Of a stretch of 64,000 nucleotides of DNA, positions 3,740-60,479 are shown piece after piece. Source of the DNA: a virus (lineage: Duplodnaviria > Caudoviricetes). Location: the IMG/VR virus record IMGVR_UViG_637000224_000001, positions 1 to 64,000 of that record; one strand, written 5' to 3'. The position numbers and the translations under genes are program-made. Each line of letters opens with the position of its first letter. Position 1 is the stretch's first letter. The notes under the pieces were generated by a model, which had not been told where the DNA came from, did not search any database, and saw only the letters and a program-made list of their open reading frames with translations.

Positions 3740-4429
3740 ATGTGCGGACGCTACTCGATCTATGAATCCATGGACCATTACCTAAAAGAGCTTGCGCCAG
3801 AGCAGCTGGTTATCAATGGCTATGACCTCTGGCCCATTGAGCGTTACAACGTTGCTCCGACGACTCGCGTTGAGATCATCCGACCGACGGAGACCGGCCT
3901 GAGTGTCGACAAGGTTCGCTGGGGATGGGCTCCGTTCTGGGCCCAGGGGAAACGTCCGGCCCCCATTAATGCACGCGTCGAAACGGTGATGACTGGAAAG
4001 TTCTTCAAAGAGTTGTGGCCGCACGGCCGTGCTCTCGCACCTGCAAATGGCTGGTTTGAATGGGTTAAGAATCCTGATGACCCCAAGAAAAAGCAGCCTT
4101 ACTTCATCCGACTCAAAAGCCAAAAGCCGATGTTTTTCGCAGCGCTCGCGCAAGTTCATGCTGGGCTGCAACCTCACGAAGGCGACGGGTTCGTGATTAT
4201 TACTGCGGCCAGCGATCAGGGAATGGTCGACATACACGACCGGCGCCCATTGGTCCTCAGCCCCGAACTGGCGCGCGAGTGGACAGACCCGTCCACTGCC
4301 CCATCGCGCGCCGCCGAGATAGCTCGGGAATGCTGTACTCCAGTCGATGAGTTTGAGTGGTATACGGTTGGCAAGGCCGTGGGTAACGTCCGGAACCAAG
4401 GGGCGGAACTGATAGAGGAAGTCGAATAA
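3740..4429 (+). CDS. SOS response-associated peptidase (SRAP/YedK/HMCES family)
   Basis: MCGRY N-terminus, RYNVAPT, NARVET, GWFEW, IHDRRP. Confidence 0.93.
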   Translation: MCGRYSIYESMDHYLKELAPEQLVINGYDLWPIERYNVAPTTRVEIIRPTETGLSVDKVRWGWAPFWAQGKRPAPINARVETVMTGKFFKELWPHGRALAPANGWFEWVKNPDDPKKKQPYFIRLKSQKPMFFAALAQVHAGLQPHEGDGFVIITAASDQGMVDIHDRRPLVLSPELAREWTDPSTAPSRAAEIARECCTPVDEFEWYTVGKAVGNVRNQGAELIEEVE

Positions 4430-4457
4430 ATTCATACGCCCAAGGCAGCCCAAGCAT

Positions 4458-5702
4458 TTAAACCTTGCGTATCCCGAACTGCGCGGCCTTGACCGTCGAG
4501 TCCTGCGGCACGCCTGCAGCCAGGTATAGGCCCATGCGCGAGGTGATAACGGTTTCAGTCAGGTCAATCGTGCCGCGCTGCGTTTCCAGCCCACCGGAAA
4601 AGCTGGCCGGCATGGTGAACGGTTCTTGGTACTTGTCCATCGACCGATAGTAGGACGTGGACGATGCGCCATTGACCGTCTTGGTGATGGTCAACTCAGC
4701 TTCCCAGGCCAGTATCCCGCGCGATGAGCCGTCGATCTCGACCGCCGACACCATTTCGATAACGTCGCCGGCCGCCAGGTTGGTCTGTACCACGTTGGCC
4801 GTGGGTTGCATGTAGATGTAGCCGCCCGCAGCCGCCATGTTGCCACGCAGCTCGATGCACTGCGCCTCACCATAGGCGGCAGGCTCCTTGTACCACCGCG
4901 TGGTGATCCCGGCCAGGCCAGAGCCCACAGCCTTGTAGCCGTCCGCCAGCACCGACCCGGCCACAGCGTTCACGCCAGCCGGTAGCGCGCCGCTAGCGCC
5001 CGCCAGCAGCGGGTTGGCATTGAGGCAGCCGAACGGACGGATGGCCGAGTAAATGTCGCCAGCGTCAGTGGGCAGCGGAATACCGGGAAATTCGAAGTTG
5101 GCGGTGATGATCGGCACCACACGCGAACTGATGAACTCGGCACCCAGGATATTGGGATGCAGGCCCTCGACAGTCATCGCTTCGGTGAAGCCGTCCCAAA
5201 TATTCACGACCGGTACGAACTGGCTGACATAGCTCACCACCCAGTCTTTGTAAGCGCTCGCATCGGCCAGCGCCTGCCCGGTCAACGCCCTGTTGCCGAA
5301 GCGCGGCGTGCCGGTGCCGACGATCAGGTACTTGCCGGGCGTGTCCAGGAACGCGGTGACGATCTTCATCACGTTGGCTTTCGTGTCGGCCAAGCTCATA
5401 CCTGCCGTGGTGCTGTCGTTGGTCCGCGACAGCAGCAGCCACAGGTCGGCAGTGGACGACGCAATGCAGGCCGGAAGTCTGGCCAGAAACTGCCCGGTGT
5501 GGTCGCCGAGCTTGCCCTGGTTGTCGAGGTAGCTGGGAAACAGGCCAGTGCGCGCCGCGATCCAGGCCGCGAAGCCATACGCCTCGGTACCGAAGGCCGT
5601 CGTCGCGATGGTGTGGCAGTTGCCCGAGAAGCTATCGCCGAGCAGGCCCAGGCCACGCCGGATCGGTTGGCGGCGTTGGATCGCGTTTACCAGAAGGCTC
5701 AT
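4458..5702 (-). CDS. SGNH/GDSL hydrolase family protein with C-terminal beta-rich domain
   Basis: LLGDSFS (block I), GKLGD, SRTND (block III), EGLHPNILG (block V). Confidence 0.8.
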   Translation of the reverse strand: MSLLVNAIQRRQPIRRGLGLLGDSFSGNCHTIATTAFGTEAYGFAAWIAARTGLFPSYLDNQGKLGDHTGQFLARLPACIASSTADLWLLLSRTNDSTTAGMSLADTKANVMKIVTAFLDTPGKYLIVGTGTPRFGNRALTGQALADASAYKDWVVSYVSQFVPVVNIWDGFTEAMTVEGLHPNILGAEFISSRVVPIITANFEFPGIPLPTDAGDIYSAIRPFGCLNANPLLAGASGALPAGVNAVAGSVLADGYKAVGSGLAGITTRWYKEPAAYGEAQCIELRGNMAAAGGYIYMQPTANVVQTNLAAGDVIEMVSAVEIDGSSRGILAWEAELTITKTVNGASSTSYYRSMDKYQEPFTMPASFSGGLETQRGTIDLTETVITSRMGLYLAAGVPQDSTVKAAQFGIRKV

Positions 5703-33597: not shown

Positions 33598-34047
33598 CTA
33601 GGTAGTGGTCTTTTCGCCAGTATTTAAAATGACCAGCAGTCTGACCTGGCCGCCGGTTCCTGTGTCCCGTTTTAGAGCCATCTCGACAGCTTCACCGGCA
33701 GTCGCCCCCATATCCATAGCTGTTAGCGCATGATCTGCACCACTGCCAATGGCATACGTGCCTTTGCAGTCAACCGGGCACTTCCAGAATCCAGAATCGG
33801 TATCAGCGCCTATGTACCAAAGCCTTTCGCTATCGAACACAATCGCAGCCGCTTCAAGGTTGCGCGTCACGGAAGCTCCGAACCATGCGCTCTGCAAATC
33901 CTCGAAATCTAAGGTCTTACCGCTCATCACGAACTTGACACCCTTAACCTCATGACATTTTTCGTAATCGTCATAGGTGATCGTGTTTCCGGTGGTGATC
34001 TGCGAGTCATAGGCGATCACGCCGTCTTTGTAGGCGATGGTCGTCAT
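33598..34047 (-). CDS. HslV/proteasome-beta-like Ntn hydrolase
   Basis: M-T-T-I N-terminal Thr, DSQIT, YEK, AIGSG, RDTGTGG. Confidence 0.8.
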   Translation of the reverse strand: MTTIAYKDGVIAYDSQITTGNTITYDDYEKCHEVKGVKFVMSGKTLDFEDLQSAWFGASVTRNLEAAAIVFDSERLWYIGADTDSGFWKCPVDCKGTYAIGSGADHALTAMDMGATAGEAVEMALKRDTGTGGQVRLLVILNTGEKTTT

Positions 34048-34177: not shown

Positions 34178-34447
34178 ATGAAACCAGGCTTCGAAATAGG
34201 AATTTTGAGCGTCGCCCTTCCACTGGCTTTCTGCCTCTTGTATCTAGCCGGTCGCCAATTGCGGACGTTTGCCGCTTGGGCCGACAACACTGATCGCCCC
34301 AAAGAACGAGCCAAGGCCTACCTGGTCATGCTCGCTATTTTGGGCTTCGTCGCCGGGAGCATGATGCAGCCCCTTTACGACCGAACCAGCGATTGCTCGG
34401 CAGTAGGCCAAGCTCTAATTCCATGCCTCTTCAATAGCGCACACTGA
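34178..34447 (+). CDS. Moron, two-TM membrane protein
   Basis: Two hydrophobic segments; opposite strand. Confidence 0.65.
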   Translation: MKPGFEIGILSVALPLAFCLLYLAGRQLRTFAAWADNTDRPKERAKAYLVMLAILGFVAGSMMQPLYDRTSDCSAVGQALIPCLFNSAH

Positions 34448-34520
34448 CTAGGTAGCCCGATTGGCCCCTTACTACCGATCGGGCTGTATAGCCCTGTCCA
34501 CCATCAGAGCCTGTCGACCA

Positions 34521-34751
34521 TCAGCTAAACGGGTCGGCAGGCTTGGCGATCGAACGCACAAACCACATGAAGCCCTGCTGGAGATTGGTTTTGGCCAGAG
34601 CCAGAATGCGAGGGTCAACGCCTTCAATTTGGCCGATCTGCTTGAACAGTTCGCCGGTATCGGCCTCCAATGCCTTGATCGAATTCATGCCATCGATCTC
34701 CGACTGGCTCAGGTCGCGATAGCCGGTGATTTTCTTGTGCTGGTTATCCAT
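34521..34751 (-). CDS. acb2: Acb2-like anti-CBASS cyclic-nucleotide sponge
   Basis: [26 protein letters not shown] and [24 protein letters not shown] match the N- and C-termini of Pseudomonas phage Acb2 as recalled. Confidence 0.8.
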   Translation of the reverse strand: [76 protein letters not shown]

Positions 34752-34897
34752 GATCTTTCCTCTGTCGTTCGCGCCACGAAATGGCAGTGCCTGAAGTTGT
34801 GGAGCGCTACCGTGGTGCCAGAGTTTCTACGCAGCGCTTGAAATGATGGCCGTTAGCCGGTATTAGTGGCGACTTTTAAAGCAAGGTAGCTAACGTA

Positions 34898-35347
34898 ATG
34901 CCGTTTACACGCACCCGCATCACTGCAGTATCAATCCTCGCATCTTTGGTTCTCAGCGGCTGCGCCACGCAACCTCAGGAAACGTGGACAAACCAAGGCC
35001 CTTCCAAGATCGTCACTGAAAATGGGCGATATGTCTGCTATACAGATGCGCAGATCGTTGACGGCAAACGTACGCGCTTCAATTTATGCGCGACTCCCTC
35101 GTCAGGGCTGATTAGTGCTAATGGGCCGCAGATTTGGGTAGGGGCTGGCTACCGGAGGCCATTCAAGTACCCCCTTAACGAAGCCATTAATGGAACCGTA
35201 GTGCCGCTTGAAGACGTGGATAACGTGCAGCTTAAATGCGAATCGTTGAAGAAGGTTGCTGGGGGCTCGACTCCCGAGACGTTCTGTAAGGTCACTCTTA
35301 AAGATAGAGTGCTCGTAAGCGCTCAGATAGTTTTCGAAGGAATGTAA
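34898..35347 (+). CDS. Moron lipoprotein
   Basis: Signal peptide with VLSG-C lipobox; four further Cys. Confidence 0.75.
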   Translation: MPFTRTRITAVSILASLVLSGCATQPQETWTNQGPSKIVTENGRYVCYTDAQIVDGKRTRFNLCATPSSGLISANGPQIWVGAGYRRPFKYPLNEAINGTVVPLEDVDNVQLKCESLKKVAGGSTPETFCKVTLKDRVLVSAQIVFEGM

Positions 35348-35382: not shown

Positions 35383-35721
35383 TTAGGGCGTCTGCCGCTC
35401 TACCGCCTCGTTGACTTTATCGGCGGCCTTGCTGGCCACCTCTGCCGCTTCCGTCGCCTTGCCCGCAGCACCCTCAACCTTTACGGCTGCTTCGGTCGCG
35501 GTCTTGGCCAGCTTGTTCAGGCGCATGTCGCGCTGAATGGTGGCCTCGTCGTAACCCCGGCGTACTTCCGCGACCTGGGTGGTGTACCAGCTCGACAGTC
35601 GCCACTCGGCAACCTGAAAGCCCAGCATTGCACCACCGGCCAGCAACAGAATGGCGATCAGCCAAACCTCTACACGCCTCCACCAGTGGCGGGCGACGAA
35701 GTTGATAGCACATCTGTCCAT
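35383..35721 (-). CDS. Holin-associated membrane protein
   Basis: Single TM (VWLIAILLLAGGAMLGF); coupled to the upstream gene. Confidence 0.65.
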   Translation of the reverse strand: MDRCAINFVARHWWRRVEVWLIAILLLAGGAMLGFQVAEWRLSSWYTTQVAEVRRGYDEATIQRDMRLNKLAKTATEAAVKVEGAAGKATEAAEVASKAADKVNEAVERQTP

Positions 35722-36092
35722 CAGTTCATTCCTCCGAGCTTGGTGCGCAGACGAGCGATCTCAGCGCTTTGAGTAGTGACCTTGTCAGTGAGCTGGGCCA
35801 CCTGGCTGGTCAGGGCTTCGATCTTCCCTTCCATCCGGCCCACGGCGGCAGCCAGCTCATTGCGTTCTTTGGCGAACTGGTCCGCCCGAGACTCGGCTTC
35901 TTTGCGGGCCACGCGCTCAGAGTCGAGCAGTTCATTGAGCCGTCGGACGGTGCCGATATCGGCGTTGTCCATGGCGCGGTCGGTCGCATCCCGGGAGAGG
36001 AATTTCCTCAACCACAGGAAGCCACCCAGCAGGATTGTGCCCGTACCGCCCAGCCAGGTAGCTGTGCCTGGGCCGAGGTCGGTTGGGTCCAT
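35721..36092 (-). CDS. Putative holin (N-terminal TM + coiled coil)
   Basis: MDPTDLGPGTATWLGG..; first conserved late gene after Q. Confidence 0.6.
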   Translation of the reverse strand: MDPTDLGPGTATWLGGTGTILLGGFLWLRKFLSRDATDRAMDNADIGTVRRLNELLDSERVARKEAESRADQFAKERNELAAAVGRMEGKIEALTSQVAQLTDKVTTQSAEIARLRTKLGGMN

Positions 36093-36261
36093 CTTTACTC
36101 CGGAAATAAAAAACTCTCCAGAATGGAGAGCATCAGAAAGCACGCAGATATCTAACGCCGTGCTCCACCACCAAACATCTGTACTGTACGAGCCAGTAAT
36201 CTAGCCCAATAATATGAGGAATATCACGAAATGGTATCTAACTAAACTTTAGGGGTGAGGG

Positions 36262-36618
36262 ATGGACAACCGAAACAAATCTGGTCTTGATGACATCAAA
36301 ACCCTGTTCGATGGTGTTAAGAACTTAGCGCTTTGCGCGGCGCTTGCAGTGGGGCTAAAAGAGTTCCAAGCGCCGATGGAAAACCTCGGCATGAGCTACC
36401 AAGCCCGACAAATGATAAACACCAGCGGAATGTTGGTTGCGAGCGGTTTTACAACGCTCGCTATAGTCTGGCTGTGTTTTAGCTTTAAGGAAAAACCTGC
36501 TTGGCCGATTATGTTTAGACTCAGCCTAATTGCTCTTGGCACTGTAACTCTGATTGTGATGGCGATAATCATCGCTTCAGCGACGGAGTCTATCCCTAGC
36601 TTTTTCCTATTTTTATAA
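36262..36618 (+). CDS. Moron, multi-TM membrane protein
   Basis: AT-rich, about 3 hydrophobic segments, opposite strand, own terminator. Confidence 0.65.
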   Translation: MDNRNKSGLDDIKTLFDGVKNLALCAALAVGLKEFQAPMENLGMSYQARQMINTSGMLVASGFTTLAIVWLCFSFKEKPAWPIMFRLSLIALGTVTLIVMAIIIASATESIPSFFLFL

Positions 36619-41212: not shown

Positions 41213-41273
41213 ATAAGCATGCTTATATCGTATTGATAAGAAGGCTTATTTGCAAGCATATAAGGGACCTTAT
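41213..41273. promoter_or_regulatory. OR: three ATAAG-N4-CTTAT operators; pR TTGCAA-17-TACGAT (minus strand)
   Basis: Palindromes at 41213-41226, 41236-41249 and 41260-41273. Confidence 0.85.
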
Positions 41274-41285
41274 AAGTTGCTATGC

Positions 41286-41936
41286 ATGACTACACTCGCC
41301 CAAAGACTGAAACTCGCTCGAGCGCACGCCAAGATCACCCAGCGAAAGCTGGCGGAGCTCGCGGGCGTAGAGCAGCCCGCTATATCCCAAATGGAAAGCG
41401 GAAAGACGCTCAAGTCCGCGCATCTCGTCGCGCTGGCCAAGGCTTGCGGCGTGAATGCTGACTGGCTTGCCACCGGTACTGGTCAAATGGCCAGCGAGCA
41501 GTCAAACGTGGAGATAGTCGAACAGCCCTCGCGCATGTACCGCTACCCTGTAGTGAGCTGGGTCGCAGCTGGCGAGTGGTCGGAAGCGGTTGAGCCTTAT
41601 GCGCCAGGTGCTGCTGATGAGTACGACGTGTCTGACTACAAGGCCAAGGGCCCGGCGTTTTGGCTGATGGTTAAAGGGGACTCGATGACGGCACCTACTG
41701 CCCCTTCGATTCCAGAGGGCTCACAGATACTCGTAGACACCCGGGCAGAAGTACTCCCAGGCAAGCTGGTGATCGCGAAGCTGGGCGGCAGCAACGAGGC
41801 GACTTTCAAGAAGCTGGTAGAAGATGGCGGCGTCAGATACCTGAAGCCCCTGAACTCTGCCTATCCGACCGTGCAGTGCTCGGATGACTGCAGGATCATC
41901 GGCGTGGTGGTCAGGTCGCTGACTAAATTTGCATGA
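41286..41936 (+). CDS. cI: CI repressor (HTH + S24 autopeptidase)
   Basis: LAQRLK..ITQRKLAELAGVEQPAISQME; VAAG, VKGDSM, ATFKKL. Confidence 0.93.
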   Translation: MTTLAQRLKLARAHAKITQRKLAELAGVEQPAISQMESGKTLKSAHLVALAKACGVNADWLATGTGQMASEQSNVEIVEQPSRMYRYPVVSWVAAGEWSEAVEPYAPGAADEYDVSDYKAKGPAFWLMVKGDSMTAPTAPSIPEGSQILVDTRAEVLPGKLVIAKLGGSNEATFKKLVEDGGVRYLKPLNSAYPTVQCSDDCRIIGVVVRSLTKFA

Positions 41937-42867: not shown

Positions 42868-43902
42868 TTATGCGTCGATAAGCAGCTCGTCGTACTCACC
42901 GGCCGCCAAAGCATCCTCGTCGTATTTGTAGCCGAGCGATTCGATCTTCAGGCGCTTCTTATACAGCCCAAGCTCTTGCCGGGCATGACTTAGAGCCTCT
43001 TCCTTGATGTAATCCTCGTACCCACTGAATACCGGGTAGTCGTTAAATATCAGCAGAGCATCAAGCTTTTCATGAAGCGAACTCATGGTCATAGGACGCT
43101 TAGTAAGGGCGGTGCTTTCGGCATAAAGCATGAACTGCTCCGAGAGCAAATGGAGACGATACAGCTCTTCATTATTTAGGTAGTTCTTACCTGTCTTCGC
43201 TTCTTCCGCCGTGGGGTTTGTGCCCTTTATAGCTAGCATGCCCATATTTTCTAAATGGTGGTCCGCGCGATCAAGAATCAGCTTTGAGCTGGTCATGCCT
43301 GTGACTGCGTGGTGGAATTTGTCTTGCAACAAGGCGTAAAAGCTCCTTACCTCCTTGGAGTTTGGGTCATAATCTGATGCGCAAATCTTGAAGCATTCTC
43401 TAACCTTGGCGTATACCTGCTTCTCTTCGGACCGGAGCGCCCGAACTGCGGCGGCCAGTTTGTTCAGCTTTTCAGGAGACTCACGCAGAGCCTTCTCGTT
43501 GATTACATACCCTTGCTCGATGTAGGTTCGCAGAGCCTGCGTAGCCCATTGCCGGAACGCAACAGCATTTTTGGCGTTGACTCGATAACCGACCGAGAGA
43601 ATAGCATCCAGATTGTAGTGTTTTATGCTACGTTCGACGAAGCGGCCGCCCTCCCTTCGAACTACCGAGAAATCCTCGGTAGTTGCCTTTTCATCCAGCT
43701 CCCCAACAGCAAATATGTTTTTTAGGTGAAGTCCGACATTGTCTGCTGTGGTCTCAAACAGGTCTGCCATGTTTTGGGCGGTTGCCCACATTGCTTGCTG
43801 TCCAGGCTCGAACCTAAGCTTTACATTTGATCCATCGCGCACGAAAGAAATTGTATTTTCGGCTGCCGCATCCTTACTACCAACATCTGCATCCTTTGAC
43901 AT
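42868..43902 (-). CDS. RhuM-family protein
   Basis: MWATAQNMADLF..NVGLHLKNIF..ELD; HYNLDAILSVGYRVN; FRQWAT; KTGKNYL..EL. Confidence 0.85.
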   Translation of the reverse strand: MSKDADVGSKDAAAENTISFVRDGSNVKLRFEPGQQAMWATAQNMADLFETTADNVGLHLKNIFAVGELDEKATTEDFSVVRREGGRFVERSIKHYNLDAILSVGYRVNAKNAVAFRQWATQALRTYIEQGYVINEKALRESPEKLNKLAAAVRALRSEEKQVYAKVRECFKICASDYDPNSKEVRSFYALLQDKFHHAVTGMTSSKLILDRADHHLENMGMLAIKGTNPTAEEAKTGKNYLNNEELYRLHLLSEQFMLYAESTALTKRPMTMSSLHEKLDALLIFNDYPVFSGYEDYIKEEALSHARQELGLYKKRLKIESLGYKYDEDALAAGEYDELLIDA

Positions 43903-44003
43903 CTCATACCCTCGGTACGCTAGGCCGGGTTCGGCGAGGTGCCAGTTTGCCACCAAATGGACCGCCATGCCCGCTACCGTCCCTAGCGCCGGGCTTTTTC
44001 GTT

Positions 44004-44276
44004 CTACCCCTTGCACGCCCTCTGCTGCTGATCAGACGCAAGCCGTCTCAGCCTCATCTCCCCTTTCACCTCAAGTACGAGCCCGACGATATCCCGGATC
44101 GTAACCAGTGCAGCAGTATCGATGCCTGTGACGGTGAACGCCTCCGCCTCGCTGCTCGTGTCGAACACCTGGATCGTCATTGACGCGTCAGGCGCGATCA
44201 CGCACACGCACTTCATTGGCAAAAACGCTGCCTCTATGCAAGGCCTCAGATCCATTTGGGAATTCATTCGGTCCAT
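44004..44276 (-). CDS. DUF1652-like protein
   Basis: IEAAFLPMKCVCVIAPDASMTIQVFD. Confidence 0.7.
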   Translation of the reverse strand: MDRMNSQMDLRPCIEAAFLPMKCVCVIAPDASMTIQVFDTSSEAEAFTVTGIDTAALVTIRDIVGLVLEVKGEMRLRRLASDQQQRACKG

Positions 44277-52105: not shown

Positions 52106-52201
52106 GCTCCAGCCTCCTGACGTTGATCTCCTGATTTAAACGTACATCCAGTCAAATTGCCACTATCCGATTCGACTTGTGGCGCAAACTTGGAATTCGA
52201 T

Positions 52202-53323
52202 ATGAGCCAGCTCCACCAGATACTGGTAGGCGACTGCATCGACATGATGCGCACGCTGCCAGATGAAAGCGTGCATACGTGCGTGACCAGTCCGCCCTAC
52301 TACGGTCTGCGTGACTACGGCGTCGAGGGCCAGATCGGCCTGGAGGAAACCCCTGCCGAGTTCATCGCTCGGTTGGTCGACGTGTTCCGCGAAGTGCGCA
52401 GGGTGCTACGCGCTGACGGCACGATCTGGGTGAACATGGGAGACAGCTACGCCGGCAGCTGGGGCTCCCAAGGCAGGCCCCAAGGCGATGGCCAGATGTC
52501 CGGGCGTAGCGTTACGTCTGCTCGGCAGATCAATGAGCACCCCAGCTTCAAATCCGGTACCGGTGTACGCGGACGCGAGATGAGCATGAAGCCCAAGGAT
52601 TTAATGGGCATGCCCTGGCGCCTGGCATTCGCCCTGCAGAACGACGGCTGGTATCTGCGGCAGGACATCATCTGGAACAAACCGAACCCGATGCCTGAGA
52701 GCGTGCGGGACCGGTGCACCAAGTCGCATGAATACATCTTCCTGCTGAGCAAATCGAAGAAGTACTACTTCGACCAGACGGCCATTCTCGAACCTTGTTC
52801 CCCGAACACCCATGCCCGTCTGTCTCAGGACGTTCAAGCGCAGATCGGCAGCGAGCGCGCCAACGGCGGAGCTAAGAGCAACGGCAACATGAAGGCGACT
52901 ACGCGGAAGTCAAACGGTGTGGGCTGGGGTCACGGCACAGACGCCGACGACCGCCAGCGCGGTAGGGTCAAAGACAACGAGTCAATGAACTCAGCCTTGG
53001 CGATCATGCCAACCGAGCGGAACAAGCGCAGCGTTTGGACTGTGGCCACACACAGCTTCAAGGGCGCCCACTTCGCCACCTTCCCGCCCGACCTGATCAG
53101 GCCCTGCATCCTTGCCGGTGCGCCGCGCGGTGGCGTGGTCCTGGACCCATTCGGCGGTGCCGGTACCACATCGCTGGTTTCGATGCAGGAAGGACGACGC
53201 TCAGTCATCTGCGAGCTGAACCCAGAATATGCGGCACTCGCCCGCGCCCGGATAGACGCAGCTTGGCTGGATGGCGCTGCTCAGATGGACGTGTTTCGGG
53301 ACTCGGTACACGGGGCGGGATAG
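52202..53323 (+). CDS. DNA N4-C/N6-A methyltransferase (beta class)
   Basis: TSPPYYG, IIWNKPNPMPES, HFATFP, VLDPFGGAGT. Confidence 0.92.
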   Translation: MSQLHQILVGDCIDMMRTLPDESVHTCVTSPPYYGLRDYGVEGQIGLEETPAEFIARLVDVFREVRRVLRADGTIWVNMGDSYAGSWGSQGRPQGDGQMSGRSVTSARQINEHPSFKSGTGVRGREMSMKPKDLMGMPWRLAFALQNDGWYLRQDIIWNKPNPMPESVRDRCTKSHEYIFLLSKSKKYYFDQTAILEPCSPNTHARLSQDVQAQIGSERANGGAKSNGNMKATTRKSNGVGWGHGTDADDRQRGRVKDNESMNSALAIMPTERNKRSVWTVATHSFKGAHFATFPPDLIRPCILAGAPRGGVVLDPFGGAGTTSLVSMQEGRRSVICELNPEYAALARARIDAAWLDGAAQMDVFRDSVHGAG

Positions 53324-54965: not shown

Positions 54966-57020
54966 ATGTCCGCTCAACAGAAGAAACACCCCTTCGATTT
55001 TAAAACCCAGTACGGCCTTGGCTTCAATCCGCAAGACGATGAGATCGTTGTGGACTTCTTCTGCGGTGGCGGCGGCGCCGGTACCGGGCTGGAAATGGGC
55101 CTTGGGCGCACCGTCAGCGTAGCCAAGAATCACAGCCCGGCAGCGATCAGCATGCACACCGTGAATCACCCAGGTGCGAAGCACTTCACGACAGATGTAT
55201 TCGACGGCGATCCGGATACCGAATGCGGAGGCAAGGCCGTGGGCTGGTTCCACATGAGCCCGGATTGCACCCACCACAGCCAGGCCGCTGGCGGGCAGCC
55301 GCGCAAGCGTGAGATCCGCAACCTGTCTTGGATCGGCTTGAAGTGGGGTGGCAAGAAGAGACCCCGCGTCATCAGCCTGGAGAACGTAAAGCAGATCCTG
55401 CAATGGGGGCCGCTGGTGGCAAAGCGTTGCAAGTCGACCGGGCGGGTCGTGAAGCTGGGCGGCGGCATTGCCGCACCTGGTGAGGTTGTGCCGGTCGATC
55501 AGCAGTTTCTGGTGCCAGACCCTGGGCGGCGCGGCCAGACGTGGGCGGTGTTCGTGGCCGAGTTGGAGCGCCTGGGCTATGTGGTCGAGTGGCGCGTGAT
55601 CCGAGCGTGCGATTTCGGTGCGCCCACCAGCCGGGAACGCCTGTTCATGATTGCCCGCTGCGACGAACAGCCGATCGTGTGGCCAGAGCCGACCCACGCC
55701 AAGCGCCCGGCCAAAGGCCAGAAGCCTTGGAGGACAGCCGCCGAGTGCATAGACTTCACCGAGTTGGGCAAAAGCATATTCGGACGCAAGAAAGACCTGG
55801 CGCCGGCCACCTTGCGGCGAGTGGCCAAGGGCATGAAGAAGTTCGTCATCGACAACCCGGCCCCGTTCATTGTCCCGATTGCGAACTGGTCGGGCGAGAC
55901 GGTGCAATCGGCCAAAGAGCCGCTGCGCACGGTGACTTCATATCCAAAAGGCGGCGCTTTCTCGGTCGTCAGCCCAGTCATTGCGCCGGCGACCCACCAG
56001 TGCAGCGATCGCATCAACGATCCGTTGGAGCCATTGCCGACAGTTACTTGCGCCAACCGTGGCGAGCTGACGCTGATCAGCCCTACCCTGATCCAGTCTG
56101 GCTACGGCGAGCGCGAAGGCCAACAGCCCCGTGTGCCAGGAATCGATCAGCCGCTGGGCACCGTTGTTGCTGGCGGCGTCAAACACGCGCTTGCCGCTGC
56201 GCACTTGGTGAAGTTCCGGTTTGACGATTCGGGCAAAGCGCTTGATGAGCCTCTGCCAACTATCACCAGCGGCGGCAACTACCAGCGGCCTGCTGGTGCA
56301 GCCCACGCGATGGGAGTGTCTACGGTGTTCATGGCTCAGATGAACGGTGGCTTCAACACGACGCACGCCAAGGGCGTCGACGAGCCAATGACGACGGTCA
56401 CCAACACCGGAAGCCAGCAGCAACTGGTGGCCGCAAGCCTGGTGCACCTACGCGGCAACTGTAATGCGCGGGACCCCGCCGATCCGCTGCACACCATTAG
56501 CGCCGGCGGCCAGCACCACGGCATGGTGACAGCGTTCATGGAGCGGCAGTTCGGTGCCAGCGTCGGTCAGTCGCTTGAAGAGCCTGCGCCCACCGTCACG
56601 GCCGGAGGCGGAGGTAAAAGCTCTGTCGTATCGCTCAGACTCTCCCCAGAGCATGAGGAAGGCGCACTGCGCGTCGCCGCGTTCCTGATCAGCTATTACG
56701 GGACCGAGAACGTCAGCAGCGCGGGCGAACCAGCGCCCACGATCACGACCAAGGATCGCTTGGCGCTGGTCACCGTCATGGTCAAGGGCACTCCCTACGT
56801 GATCGTCGACATCTGCCTGCGGATGCTCAAGCCGTCAGAGCTGTACAAGGCTCAGGGCTTCCCCGCCGACTACGTCATCACCCACGGCGCCGACGGCAAA
56901 CCGTTCACTAAAACTCAGCAGGTTCACATGTGCGGCAACAGCGTGAGCCCGCCGCCGATGGCAGCCTTGGCCAAGGCTAATGACCCTTGGCGGGCAACCA
57001 TGGCAGCTTTAGCAGCCTGA
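54966..57020 (+). CDS. DNA (cytosine-5) methyltransferase with large insertion
   Basis: DFFCGGGG, SPDCTHHS, LENV, TSRERLF, GNSVSPP. Confidence 0.92.
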   Translation: MSAQQKKHPFDFKTQYGLGFNPQDDEIVVDFFCGGGGAGTGLEMGLGRTVSVAKNHSPAAISMHTVNHPGAKHFTTDVFDGDPDTECGGKAVGWFHMSPDCTHHSQAAGGQPRKREIRNLSWIGLKWGGKKRPRVISLENVKQILQWGPLVAKRCKSTGRVVKLGGGIAAPGEVVPVDQQFLVPDPGRRGQTWAVFVAELERLGYVVEWRVIRACDFGAPTSRERLFMIARCDEQPIVWPEPTHAKRPAKGQKPWRTAAECIDFTELGKSIFGRKKDLAPATLRRVAKGMKKFVIDNPAPFIVPIANWSGETVQSAKEPLRTVTSYPKGGAFSVVSPVIAPATHQCSDRINDPLEPLPTVTCANRGELTLISPTLIQSGYGEREGQQPRVPGIDQPLGTVVAGGVKHALAAAHLVKFRFDDSGKALDEPLPTITSGGNYQRPAGAAHAMGVSTVFMAQMNGGFNTTHAKGVDEPMTTVTNTGSQQQLVAASLVHLRGNCNARDPADPLHTISAGGQHHGMVTAFMERQFGASVGQSLEEPAPTVTAGGGGKSSVVSLRLSPEHEEGALRVAAFLISYYGTENVSSAGEPAPTITTKDRLALVTVMVKGTPYVIVDICLRMLKPSELYKAQGFPADYVITHGADGKPFTKTQQVHMCGNSVSPPPMAALAKANDPWRATMAALAA

Positions 57021-59444: not shown

Positions 59445-60479
59445 ATGGGAAGGAAGCCGATTAATCCCGACAGCGTCACACGCCTCAGAAAGCGTAAACA
59501 GCGCAGCGGGGTCGTCTATTACTACTATGACATCGGAGGCTCACCGCGAAAGGAAATCCCACTCGGCTCGGACTATGGCATGGCGATCGTCGAGTACGCC
59601 AAGCTGGAGAAGAGCCGAACATCCTCGGCTCTCGTACAGCAGGTGCTGACCTTCGCGTATGTCGCGCAGAAGTACATGATCGAGGTCGTGCCGACCAAAA
59701 GCCCGGCAACGCAGAAAGACAACGCCAGGGAGCTGAAGCAGCTTCTGAAGTTCTTCGACGATCCGCCAGCACCGCTGGAAGCGATCGAACCTCAACACGT
59801 CGTGCAGTACCTGCGCCAGCGCGGGAAGACTGCCCCTGTACGAGCAAACCGGGAGAAGGCGCTACTGAGTGCTATCTGGAATTTTGCGAGGAGCGCCGGC
59901 TACACAGCGCTGGCCAACCCATGCGCGGGCGTAAAGGGTCACAAGGAAGTTGGGCGAGACCATTACATCGAGGACGAGATGTTTGCTCTGGTTTACGGCC
60001 ATGCGGAGCAACCTCTACGCGATGCTCTGGATCTGTTCTACCTGACCGGACAGCGGATTGCGGACACGCTGAAAATGGACGAGCGCGATATACGCGACGG
60101 CCGGCTATGGGTTCAGCAAGGTAAGACGAATGCAAAAAGGAGGATTGAAATTACAGGTGAGCTGAAGGTGGTCATTGACCGCATTATGACCAGAAAGGAA
60201 GGACACAGGATCCGCACCTCCAGGCTGATCGTCATGGATAACGGCCAGCCCATGACGAGCAGTATGTTGCGGGGAAGATTTGACGCGGCACGCGAGGCGG
60301 CCGGTGTGGAGAAGGGAGAATTTCAGATGCGAGACCTGCGAGCGAAAGCCGGCACGGATAAAGCTGAATCGAGCGGCGATATCCTTCAAGCCCGCGATCA
60401 GCTCGGGCACACCACCGTGGTGATGACCGAGAACTACATCCGCAAAAGGATCGGGAAAAAGGTCACTCCAACCAAGTGA
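59445..60479 (+). CDS. int: Tyrosine integrase
   Basis: LTGQRIAD, QGKT, RDLRAKA, LGHTT..MTENY; next to att. Confidence 0.95.
   Translation: MGRKPINPDSVTRLRKRKQRSGVVYYYYDIGGSPRKEIPLGSDYGMAIVEYAKLEKSRTSSALVQQVLTFAYVAQKYMIEVVPTKSPATQKDNARELKQLLKFFDDPPAPLEAIEPQHVVQYLRQRGKTAPVRANREKALLSAIWNFARSAGYTALANPCAGVKGHKEVGRDHYIEDEMFALVYGHAEQPLRDALDLFYLTGQRIADTLKMDERDIRDGRLWVQQGKTNAKRRIEITGELKVVIDRIMTRKEGHRIRTSRLIVMDNGQPMTSSMLRGRFDAAREAAGVEKGEFQMRDLRAKAGTDKAESSGDILQARDQLGHTTVVMTENYIRKRIGKKVTPTK

Follow-up and report, generated by a model that had tools for sequence, protein, structure and literature searches.

The 76-residue protein encoded at 34521..34751 on the minus strand is a genuine member of the Acb2 (T4 Vs.4) family by both sequence and fold, and it is best explained as a short-hairpin Acb2 sponge that sequesters the cyclic dinucleotides of CBASS (probability about 0.88). 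Its gene, acb2, lies in a stretch of 64,000 nucleotides (referred to here as the window) that belongs to a 77-kb provirus record in IMG/VR. The family is already known and labelled in public databases, and the short form is its common version. A sequence-only reading of the same DNA had arrived at an Acb2-family sponge for cyclic oligonucleotides, and this core assignment is supported by the HMM and fold matches presented below.

Gene and Family Assignment

The coding sequence comprises 76 codons and a stop, with an ATG start. Direct inspection of the reverse complement places a Shine-Dalgarno-like GAGGA at 34758..34762 (minus strand), 6 nt before the ATG. The encoded protein is the same as that called in the sequence-only reading. 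A longer ORF of 126 aa overlaps acb2 in antisense (34461-34841, plus strand); it was regarded as a side effect of the G+C-rich coding strand and set aside because the homology evidence lies wholly in the minus-strand frame.

A single Pfam-A family, PF24729 (Acb2_Tad1_hairpin), matches the protein, with a score of 66.3 bits (E = 2.7e-18) against a curated cutoff of 27 bits, thereby providing the HMM match to the Acb2 family that had been named beforehand as a check on the assignment. The profile is covered in full (1-58 of 58) by residues 10-70, and a genome search gave the same result. In PHROGs, the protein is assigned to two families without known function. Several of its close homologs are already named "Acb2/Tad1 domain-containing protein" (NCBI, UniRef) or "DUF7681".

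A phmmer search of the PDB sequences returned PaMx33 Acb2 (8H2J, E = 8.2e-14; 8IXZ, E = 4.2e-13) and T4 Vs.4 (7UQ2, E = 0.011), and the significant matches are Acb2 or Vs.4 without exception. The alignment to 8H2J is in two pieces, with query residues 1-39 aligned to chain residues 1-39 and query residues 39-71 to chain residues 57-90, such that ~17 residues at the tip of the PaMx33 hairpin are unmatched in the 76-residue protein. The ends of PaMx33 Acb2 as given in the sequence-only reading agree with the 8H2J chain and with the sequence tabulated by Hadary et al. 2025.

Predicted Fold

The AlphaFold2 monomer model, for which 64 diverse compact homologs served as the alignment input, has a mean pLDDT of 91 and consists of a short N-terminal turn and two antiparallel long helices (residues 16-40 and 47-69). 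In a Foldseek search against the PDB, the best nine matches are all Acb2 (8H2J, 8H2X) or Vs.4 (7UQ2), with TM-scores of up to 0.78, and the E value rises above 1 after the ninth match. VIA-align superposes 73 of the 76 residues on 8H2J with a Z score of 8.7, an rmsd of 1.8 Å, and 47% identity in the structural alignment. The corresponding superposition on Vs.4 extends over 73 residues with a Z score of 8.5 and an rmsd of 2.3 Å; the next unrelated helical hairpins reach Z scores of 6.5 at most. Foldseek and VIA-align thus agree on 8H2J and Vs.4, which is the fold match that had been proposed as a second check.

Tad1 has an N-terminal beta-sheet region ahead of its helical hairpin and a larger protomer. 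The AlphaFold2 model of the 76-residue protein contains no beta strands. Although Tad1 is also in PF24729, it was rejected as an assignment on the basis of the length of 76 aa, the strand-free model, and PDB sequence matches that comprise only Acb2 and Vs.4.

Ligand Pockets and Proposed Mechanism

In PaMx33 Acb2, Y11 stacks on the base of the cyclic dinucleotide and K26 forms a salt bridge to it, and mutagenesis has established that both residues are required for cyclic dinucleotide binding (PMC10312549). The cA3 pocket is separate. R67 and T74 make phosphate contacts to the cyclic trinucleotide, and cA3 binding is abolished in the R67A variant and weakened in T74A (PMC10312549). In the alignment to 8H2J, all four of these mutation-validated ligand residues are kept in the 76-residue protein, as Y11 (codon 34719..34721), K26 (34674..34676), R48 in place of R67 (34608..34610), and T55 in place of T74 (34587..34589), all on the minus strand. 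The retention of Tyr11 and Lys26 noted in the sequence-only reading is therefore correct. Of the other pocket residues, L14 is kept, A70, I71, and P90 correspond to A51, L52, and P71, respectively, and the kink E64-P65 corresponds to D46-P47 in the same alignment. The hairpin turn is placed at residues 41-46 (34614..34631, minus strand) from the helix ends in the model and the split in the 8H2J alignment.

The pocket residues are widely conserved. Among the 64 diverse compact homologs, which are 42-96% identical to the query, Y11 is present in 63, L14 in 60, K26 in 63, R48 in 57, T55 in 54, and P71 in 61. Y11 and R48 do not vary among 24 close homologs, and K26 and T55 hardly vary.

By homology, the protein would assemble as a homo-hexamer, interlocked as in the Acb2 family, in which the N-terminal segments of paired protomers (Y11, L14, and K26), together with the C-terminal P71, would form three pockets. 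These pockets are proposed to sequester CBASS cyclic dinucleotides, e.g., 3'3'-cGAMP and 3'3'-cUA, such that CBASS effectors would be kept from firing during the replication of an induced prophage or an infecting phage. Both the sequestration of cyclic dinucleotides and the inhibition of CBASS by the 76-residue protein are very likely. The two three-fold pockets probably also bind cA3 and cAAG, since R48, A51, L52, and T55 match R67, A70, I71, and T74 of PaMx33 Acb2. Judged from these residues, trinucleotide binding is plausible, with the balance somewhat in its favor.

PaMx33 Acb2 binds cA3 and cAAG, whereas it binds neither cA4 nor cA6. For this reason, the anti-type III CRISPR role that the sequence-only reading had considered possible is unlikely beyond cA3 systems; what stands of that proposal is a weak case, limited to systems of the cA3/NucC type.

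Selection, Distribution, and Hairpin Length

The gene has a median dN/dS of 0.029 against 33 orthologues of equal length from named genomes, with synonymous differences that are near-saturated (pS 0.5-0.78) and an amino-acid identity of at least 90%. The acb2 gene is under strong purifying selection and is clearly functional. Relatives are encoded in at least 178 species-representative genomes, mostly of Pseudomonas, with the best match in P. trivialis (99%). Lytic jumbo phages of about 350 kb that infect Enterobacterales (Erwinia, Serratia BF, Yersinia, Salmonella, Klebsiella, and Cronobacter) also carry short Acb2 homologs with 55-63% identity, and the same compact form thus spans temperate siphoviruses and jumbo myoviruses.

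A word-indexed search identified 1,063 clusters (90% identity) at E ≤ 0.001, and most of the best 120 of these are exactly 76 aa in length, with Pseudomonas, Stutzerimonas, and Azotobacter as their sources. An exhaustive search of 50%-identity representatives identified 1,114 proteins at E ≤ 0.001. For a census of hairpin length, defined as the residue spacing between Y11 and the arginine of the trinucleotide pocket, the best 150 of these 1,114 were aligned to two sub-HMMs, and 145 of them could be anchored. The census was ranked by similarity to the compact query and leans towards compact forms; within it, the spacing is exactly 37, as in the 76-residue protein, in 80 of the 145 relatives, at most 40 in 106, and greater than 48 in 14. 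The corresponding values are 56 in PaMx33 and 71 in JBD67. The Acb2 homologs tested by Hadary et al. 2025 (bioRxiv 10.1101/2025.08.24.671296, Table S2) are mostly 60-90 aa long. A reading of JBD67 Acb2 as a compact form, based on the 228-bp deletion coordinates (PMC10312549), was rejected, as the protein has 108 aa and an even longer hairpin.

The compact form also fills the whole PF24729 profile, and a 74-aa member already blocks CBASS; it is not a derived oddity. The earlier description of the protein as compact and lacking part of the central helical insert holds relative to PaMx33, JBD67, and T4, but not relative to the family at large, where its length is the commonest among relatives. 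The textbook proteins from PaMx33, JBD67, and T4 represent the long-hairpin minority of the Acb2 family.

Prophage Context and Expression

The window encodes a tyrosine integrase (59445-60479), a CI-like repressor (41250-41936, plus strand), a CII-like regulator, an O-like replication protein, NinB, and NinG. NinB and NinG are followed by the terminase genes (a DUF2280 small subunit, TerS, and a large subunit, TerL) and the portal gene. The integrase, the CI- and CII-like regulators, and the O-like and Nin genes bear out the assignment to a temperate prophage made in the sequence-only reading and identify it as lambdoid.

The acb2 gene is on the late strand, with a holin-like pair (35383-36143) on one side and an HslV-like peptidase, a metallopeptidase, and terminase on the other. 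In the P. aeruginosa phages 5400 and U2, a 92%-identical gene directly follows the holin and endolysin genes and precedes the small terminase subunit. Among 67 full-length loci from species-representative genomes, the Pseudomonas copies lie downstream of NinG and are in turn followed on the same strand by the genes for the metallopeptidase, TerS, TerL, and the portal, even where the terminase identity is only ~35%. On the basis of this orientation and conserved synteny, it is reasonable to infer that acb2 is transcribed as part of the late operon. No sigma-70-like promoter was detected in the 146-bp region upstream of acb2. Scanning its surroundings for promoters and terminators yielded nothing above the shuffled expectation, and a promoter of its own is thus neither supported nor excluded.

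The HslV/proteasome-beta-like peptidase (33598-34047, minus strand; phrog_1040, E = 5e-42, with a weak Pfam Proteasome match) is encoded downstream of acb2. In 5 of the 67 loci, all Pseudomonas prophages (L010, L012, L024, L041, and L056; gene coordinates about 4239-4690), the HslV-like gene starts ~8 nt past the acb2 stop, and it lies within 4 kb of acb2 in 9 of the 67. This adjacency could reflect plain synteny or functional pairing. The putative phage metallopeptidase (32389-33012, minus strand; PF18894, E = 3e-43) contains an HExxH motif and is located directly upstream of the DUF2280 TerS, and 19 of the 67 related loci retain the metallopeptidase-TerS pair. The PHROGs label of "transposase" on the metallopeptidase family looks to be a mislabel.

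Several ORFs on the opposite strand accompany acb2, two of which, of 149 and 89 aa, flank it in the window. A 149-aa lipoprotein ORF (34898-35347, plus strand), which harbors a signal peptide and an LSGC lipobox and has no Pfam or PHROG match, diverges from acb2 in a position that recalls lambda bor. It is probably a real moron gene, since homologs (34-49% identity) adjoin acb2 on the opposite strand in three other loci (L013, L025, and L041). Two membrane-like ORFs without a family match, one of 89 aa flanking acb2 (34178-34447, plus strand) and one of 118 aa (36262-36618, plus strand), may also be morons; the latter is in a stretch of lower GC content (0.45-0.49 vs about 0.58-0.63 in the neighboring genes). 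Elsewhere in the window are a RhuM-family gene (42868-44016, minus strand), an N6/N4 DNA methylase gene (52157-53323, plus strand), and a gene for a 684-aa C5 cytosine methylase (54966-57020, plus strand), a cargo that could be related to defense or counter-defense.

Alternative Explanations

The shorter hairpin raises the question of ligand range. A tentative alternative is that the protein is an Acb2-fold sponge for cyclic dinucleotides only, countering cGAMP/cUA CBASS but not cA3 systems, because the shorter hairpin would leave the three-fold pocket too open or misshaped, as in T4 Vs.4. The trinucleotide pocket takes its geometry from the hexamer. For the T4 protein, cA3 binding is decided by helix geometry too and not by the residue pair alone: it keeps the threonine, yet it does not bind cA3 even with the D61R substitution, since its helix is unkinked and its helix angles differ (PMC10312549). 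The turn of the 76-residue protein falls exactly at the E64 kink of PaMx33 Acb2, such that the arm preceding the kink is missing. However, the four listed trinucleotide contacts of PaMx33 lie after the kink, and their counterparts (R48, A51, L52, and T55) are all retained. In addition, the frequency of the arginine and the threonine in the 64 diverse compact homologs suggests selection for a trinucleotide pocket, and JBD67 Acb2, in which the same residues occur, has an affinity of about 3.5 nM for cA3 and of about 99 nM for cGAMP (PMC10312549). The loss of the pre-kink arm, which rims the three-fold pocket in PaMx33 Acb2, is shared by the short-hairpin clade, and it is unlikely, on the whole, that this clade is functionally distinct. 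Such a distinction could take the form of altered ligands or stoichiometry at the three-fold pocket (e.g., an inability to bind trinucleotides, or the binding of different oligonucleotides) or of action together with the HslV-like peptidase.

More distant readings separate the protein from CBASS altogether. Type I Thoeris is inhibited by 10 of 46 tested Acb2 homologs, and Acb2_43, a binder of 3'cADPR, fails to inhibit CBASS, but a similar retargeting of the 76-residue protein to another signal, e.g., the 3'cADPR of type I Thoeris, is highly improbable. Acb2_43 relies on extra N- and C-terminal beta strands and on other residues (T4, H5, L6, V7, K19, and K55), whereas the model described here is strand-free and the CBASS-type Y11, L14, K26, and P71 are kept; an Acb2_43-type assignment was rejected on the absence of strands and the retention of Y11 and K26. 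Furthermore, the closest tested homolog, Acb2_26, inhibits both CBASS systems but not type I Thoeris. The possibility of a lysis-cassette accessory protein (a spanin or lysis regulator) without an anti-defense role is suggested by the position of the gene directly after the endolysin gene in phages 5400 and U2 and by a call of "Rz-like spanin" on the opposite strand over the same DNA in U2. The chances of this reading are very slim: it is a soluble, helical protein in which a signal peptide, a lipobox, and transmembrane segments are all absent, its sequence and fold match Acb2, its close homologs are also found elsewhere, in jumbo lytic phages, and the longer JBD67 acb2 follows a capsid gene. 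A short-hairpin Acb2 sponge directed at CBASS cyclic dinucleotides is thus the preferred explanation.

Significance and Annotation

A Pseudomonas prophage that carries a standard counter-defense gene against CBASS adds little new biology. The practical point is one of annotation, as acb2 is often left "hypothetical" or mislabelled in phage records. In Pseudomonas phage vB_Pae_U2 (PP003914.1; L004 3980-4675), the acb2 homolog is unannotated beneath the opposite-strand "Rz-like spanin" call, and phages MR5, MR6, and MR7 carry the annotation "NAD/FAD-utilizing enzyme" over the matching DNA (52.6% protein identity). A high-affinity trinucleotide pocket, if kept in short-hairpin Acb2 proteins, would matter for cA3-based CBASS and for the sponge-sensing Panoptes. 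Panoptes systems fire once Acb2 depletes 2'3'-c-di-AMP or cA3, making the sponge a potential liability (PMC13712596). If a distinct pocket or a partnership with the HslV-like peptidase were true, the short-hairpin protein would be a functionally distinct subtype and not a trimmed copy.

Comparison with Characterized Acb2 Proteins

Acb2_26 is a 74-aa protein from an IMG/VR metagenomic phage (Hadary et al. 2025, bioRxiv 10.1101/2025.08.24.671296). It is 51% identical to the 76-residue protein over 72 residues in a gap-free alignment, and both have the short-hairpin architecture; however, Acb2_26 falls in another subclade, and its helix 1 and C-terminal tail differ. In culture collapse and plaque assays, it inhibited CBASS from Yersinia (3'3'-cUA) and from E. 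albertii (3'3'-cGAMP), while the Thoeris systems of types I and II and two Pycsar systems were unaffected, a profile shared by the PaMx33 control (Hadary et al. 2025). The type IV Thoeris strain could not be transformed with Acb2_26, and the CBASS systems in the screen are dinucleotide only (Hadary et al. 2025).

T4 Vs.4 (Acb2; PDB 7UQ2, 89 aa) shares its fold and the type of its cyclic dinucleotide pocket with the 76-residue protein, at an identity of about 24-26%. It differs in having no trinucleotide-pocket arginine, and it does not bind cA3 (PMC10312549). JBD67 Acb2 (108 aa), from a temperate Pseudomonas phage, shares the N-terminal motif and the C-terminal pocket residues, but its hairpin is far longer (spacing of 71 vs 37). 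The genomic positions also differ, as the JBD67 gene follows the major head (capsid) gene, whereas acb2 of the window is located between the lysis and terminase genes. In PaMx33 Acb2 ("p26", 93 aa; PDB 8H2J, 8H2X, and 8IXZ), the hairpin tip is ~17 residues longer, with a Y11-to-Arg spacing of 56 vs 37, and the position of its E64 kink is occupied by the hairpin turn in the 76-residue protein. Residues 1-26 of the two proteins are nearly identical.
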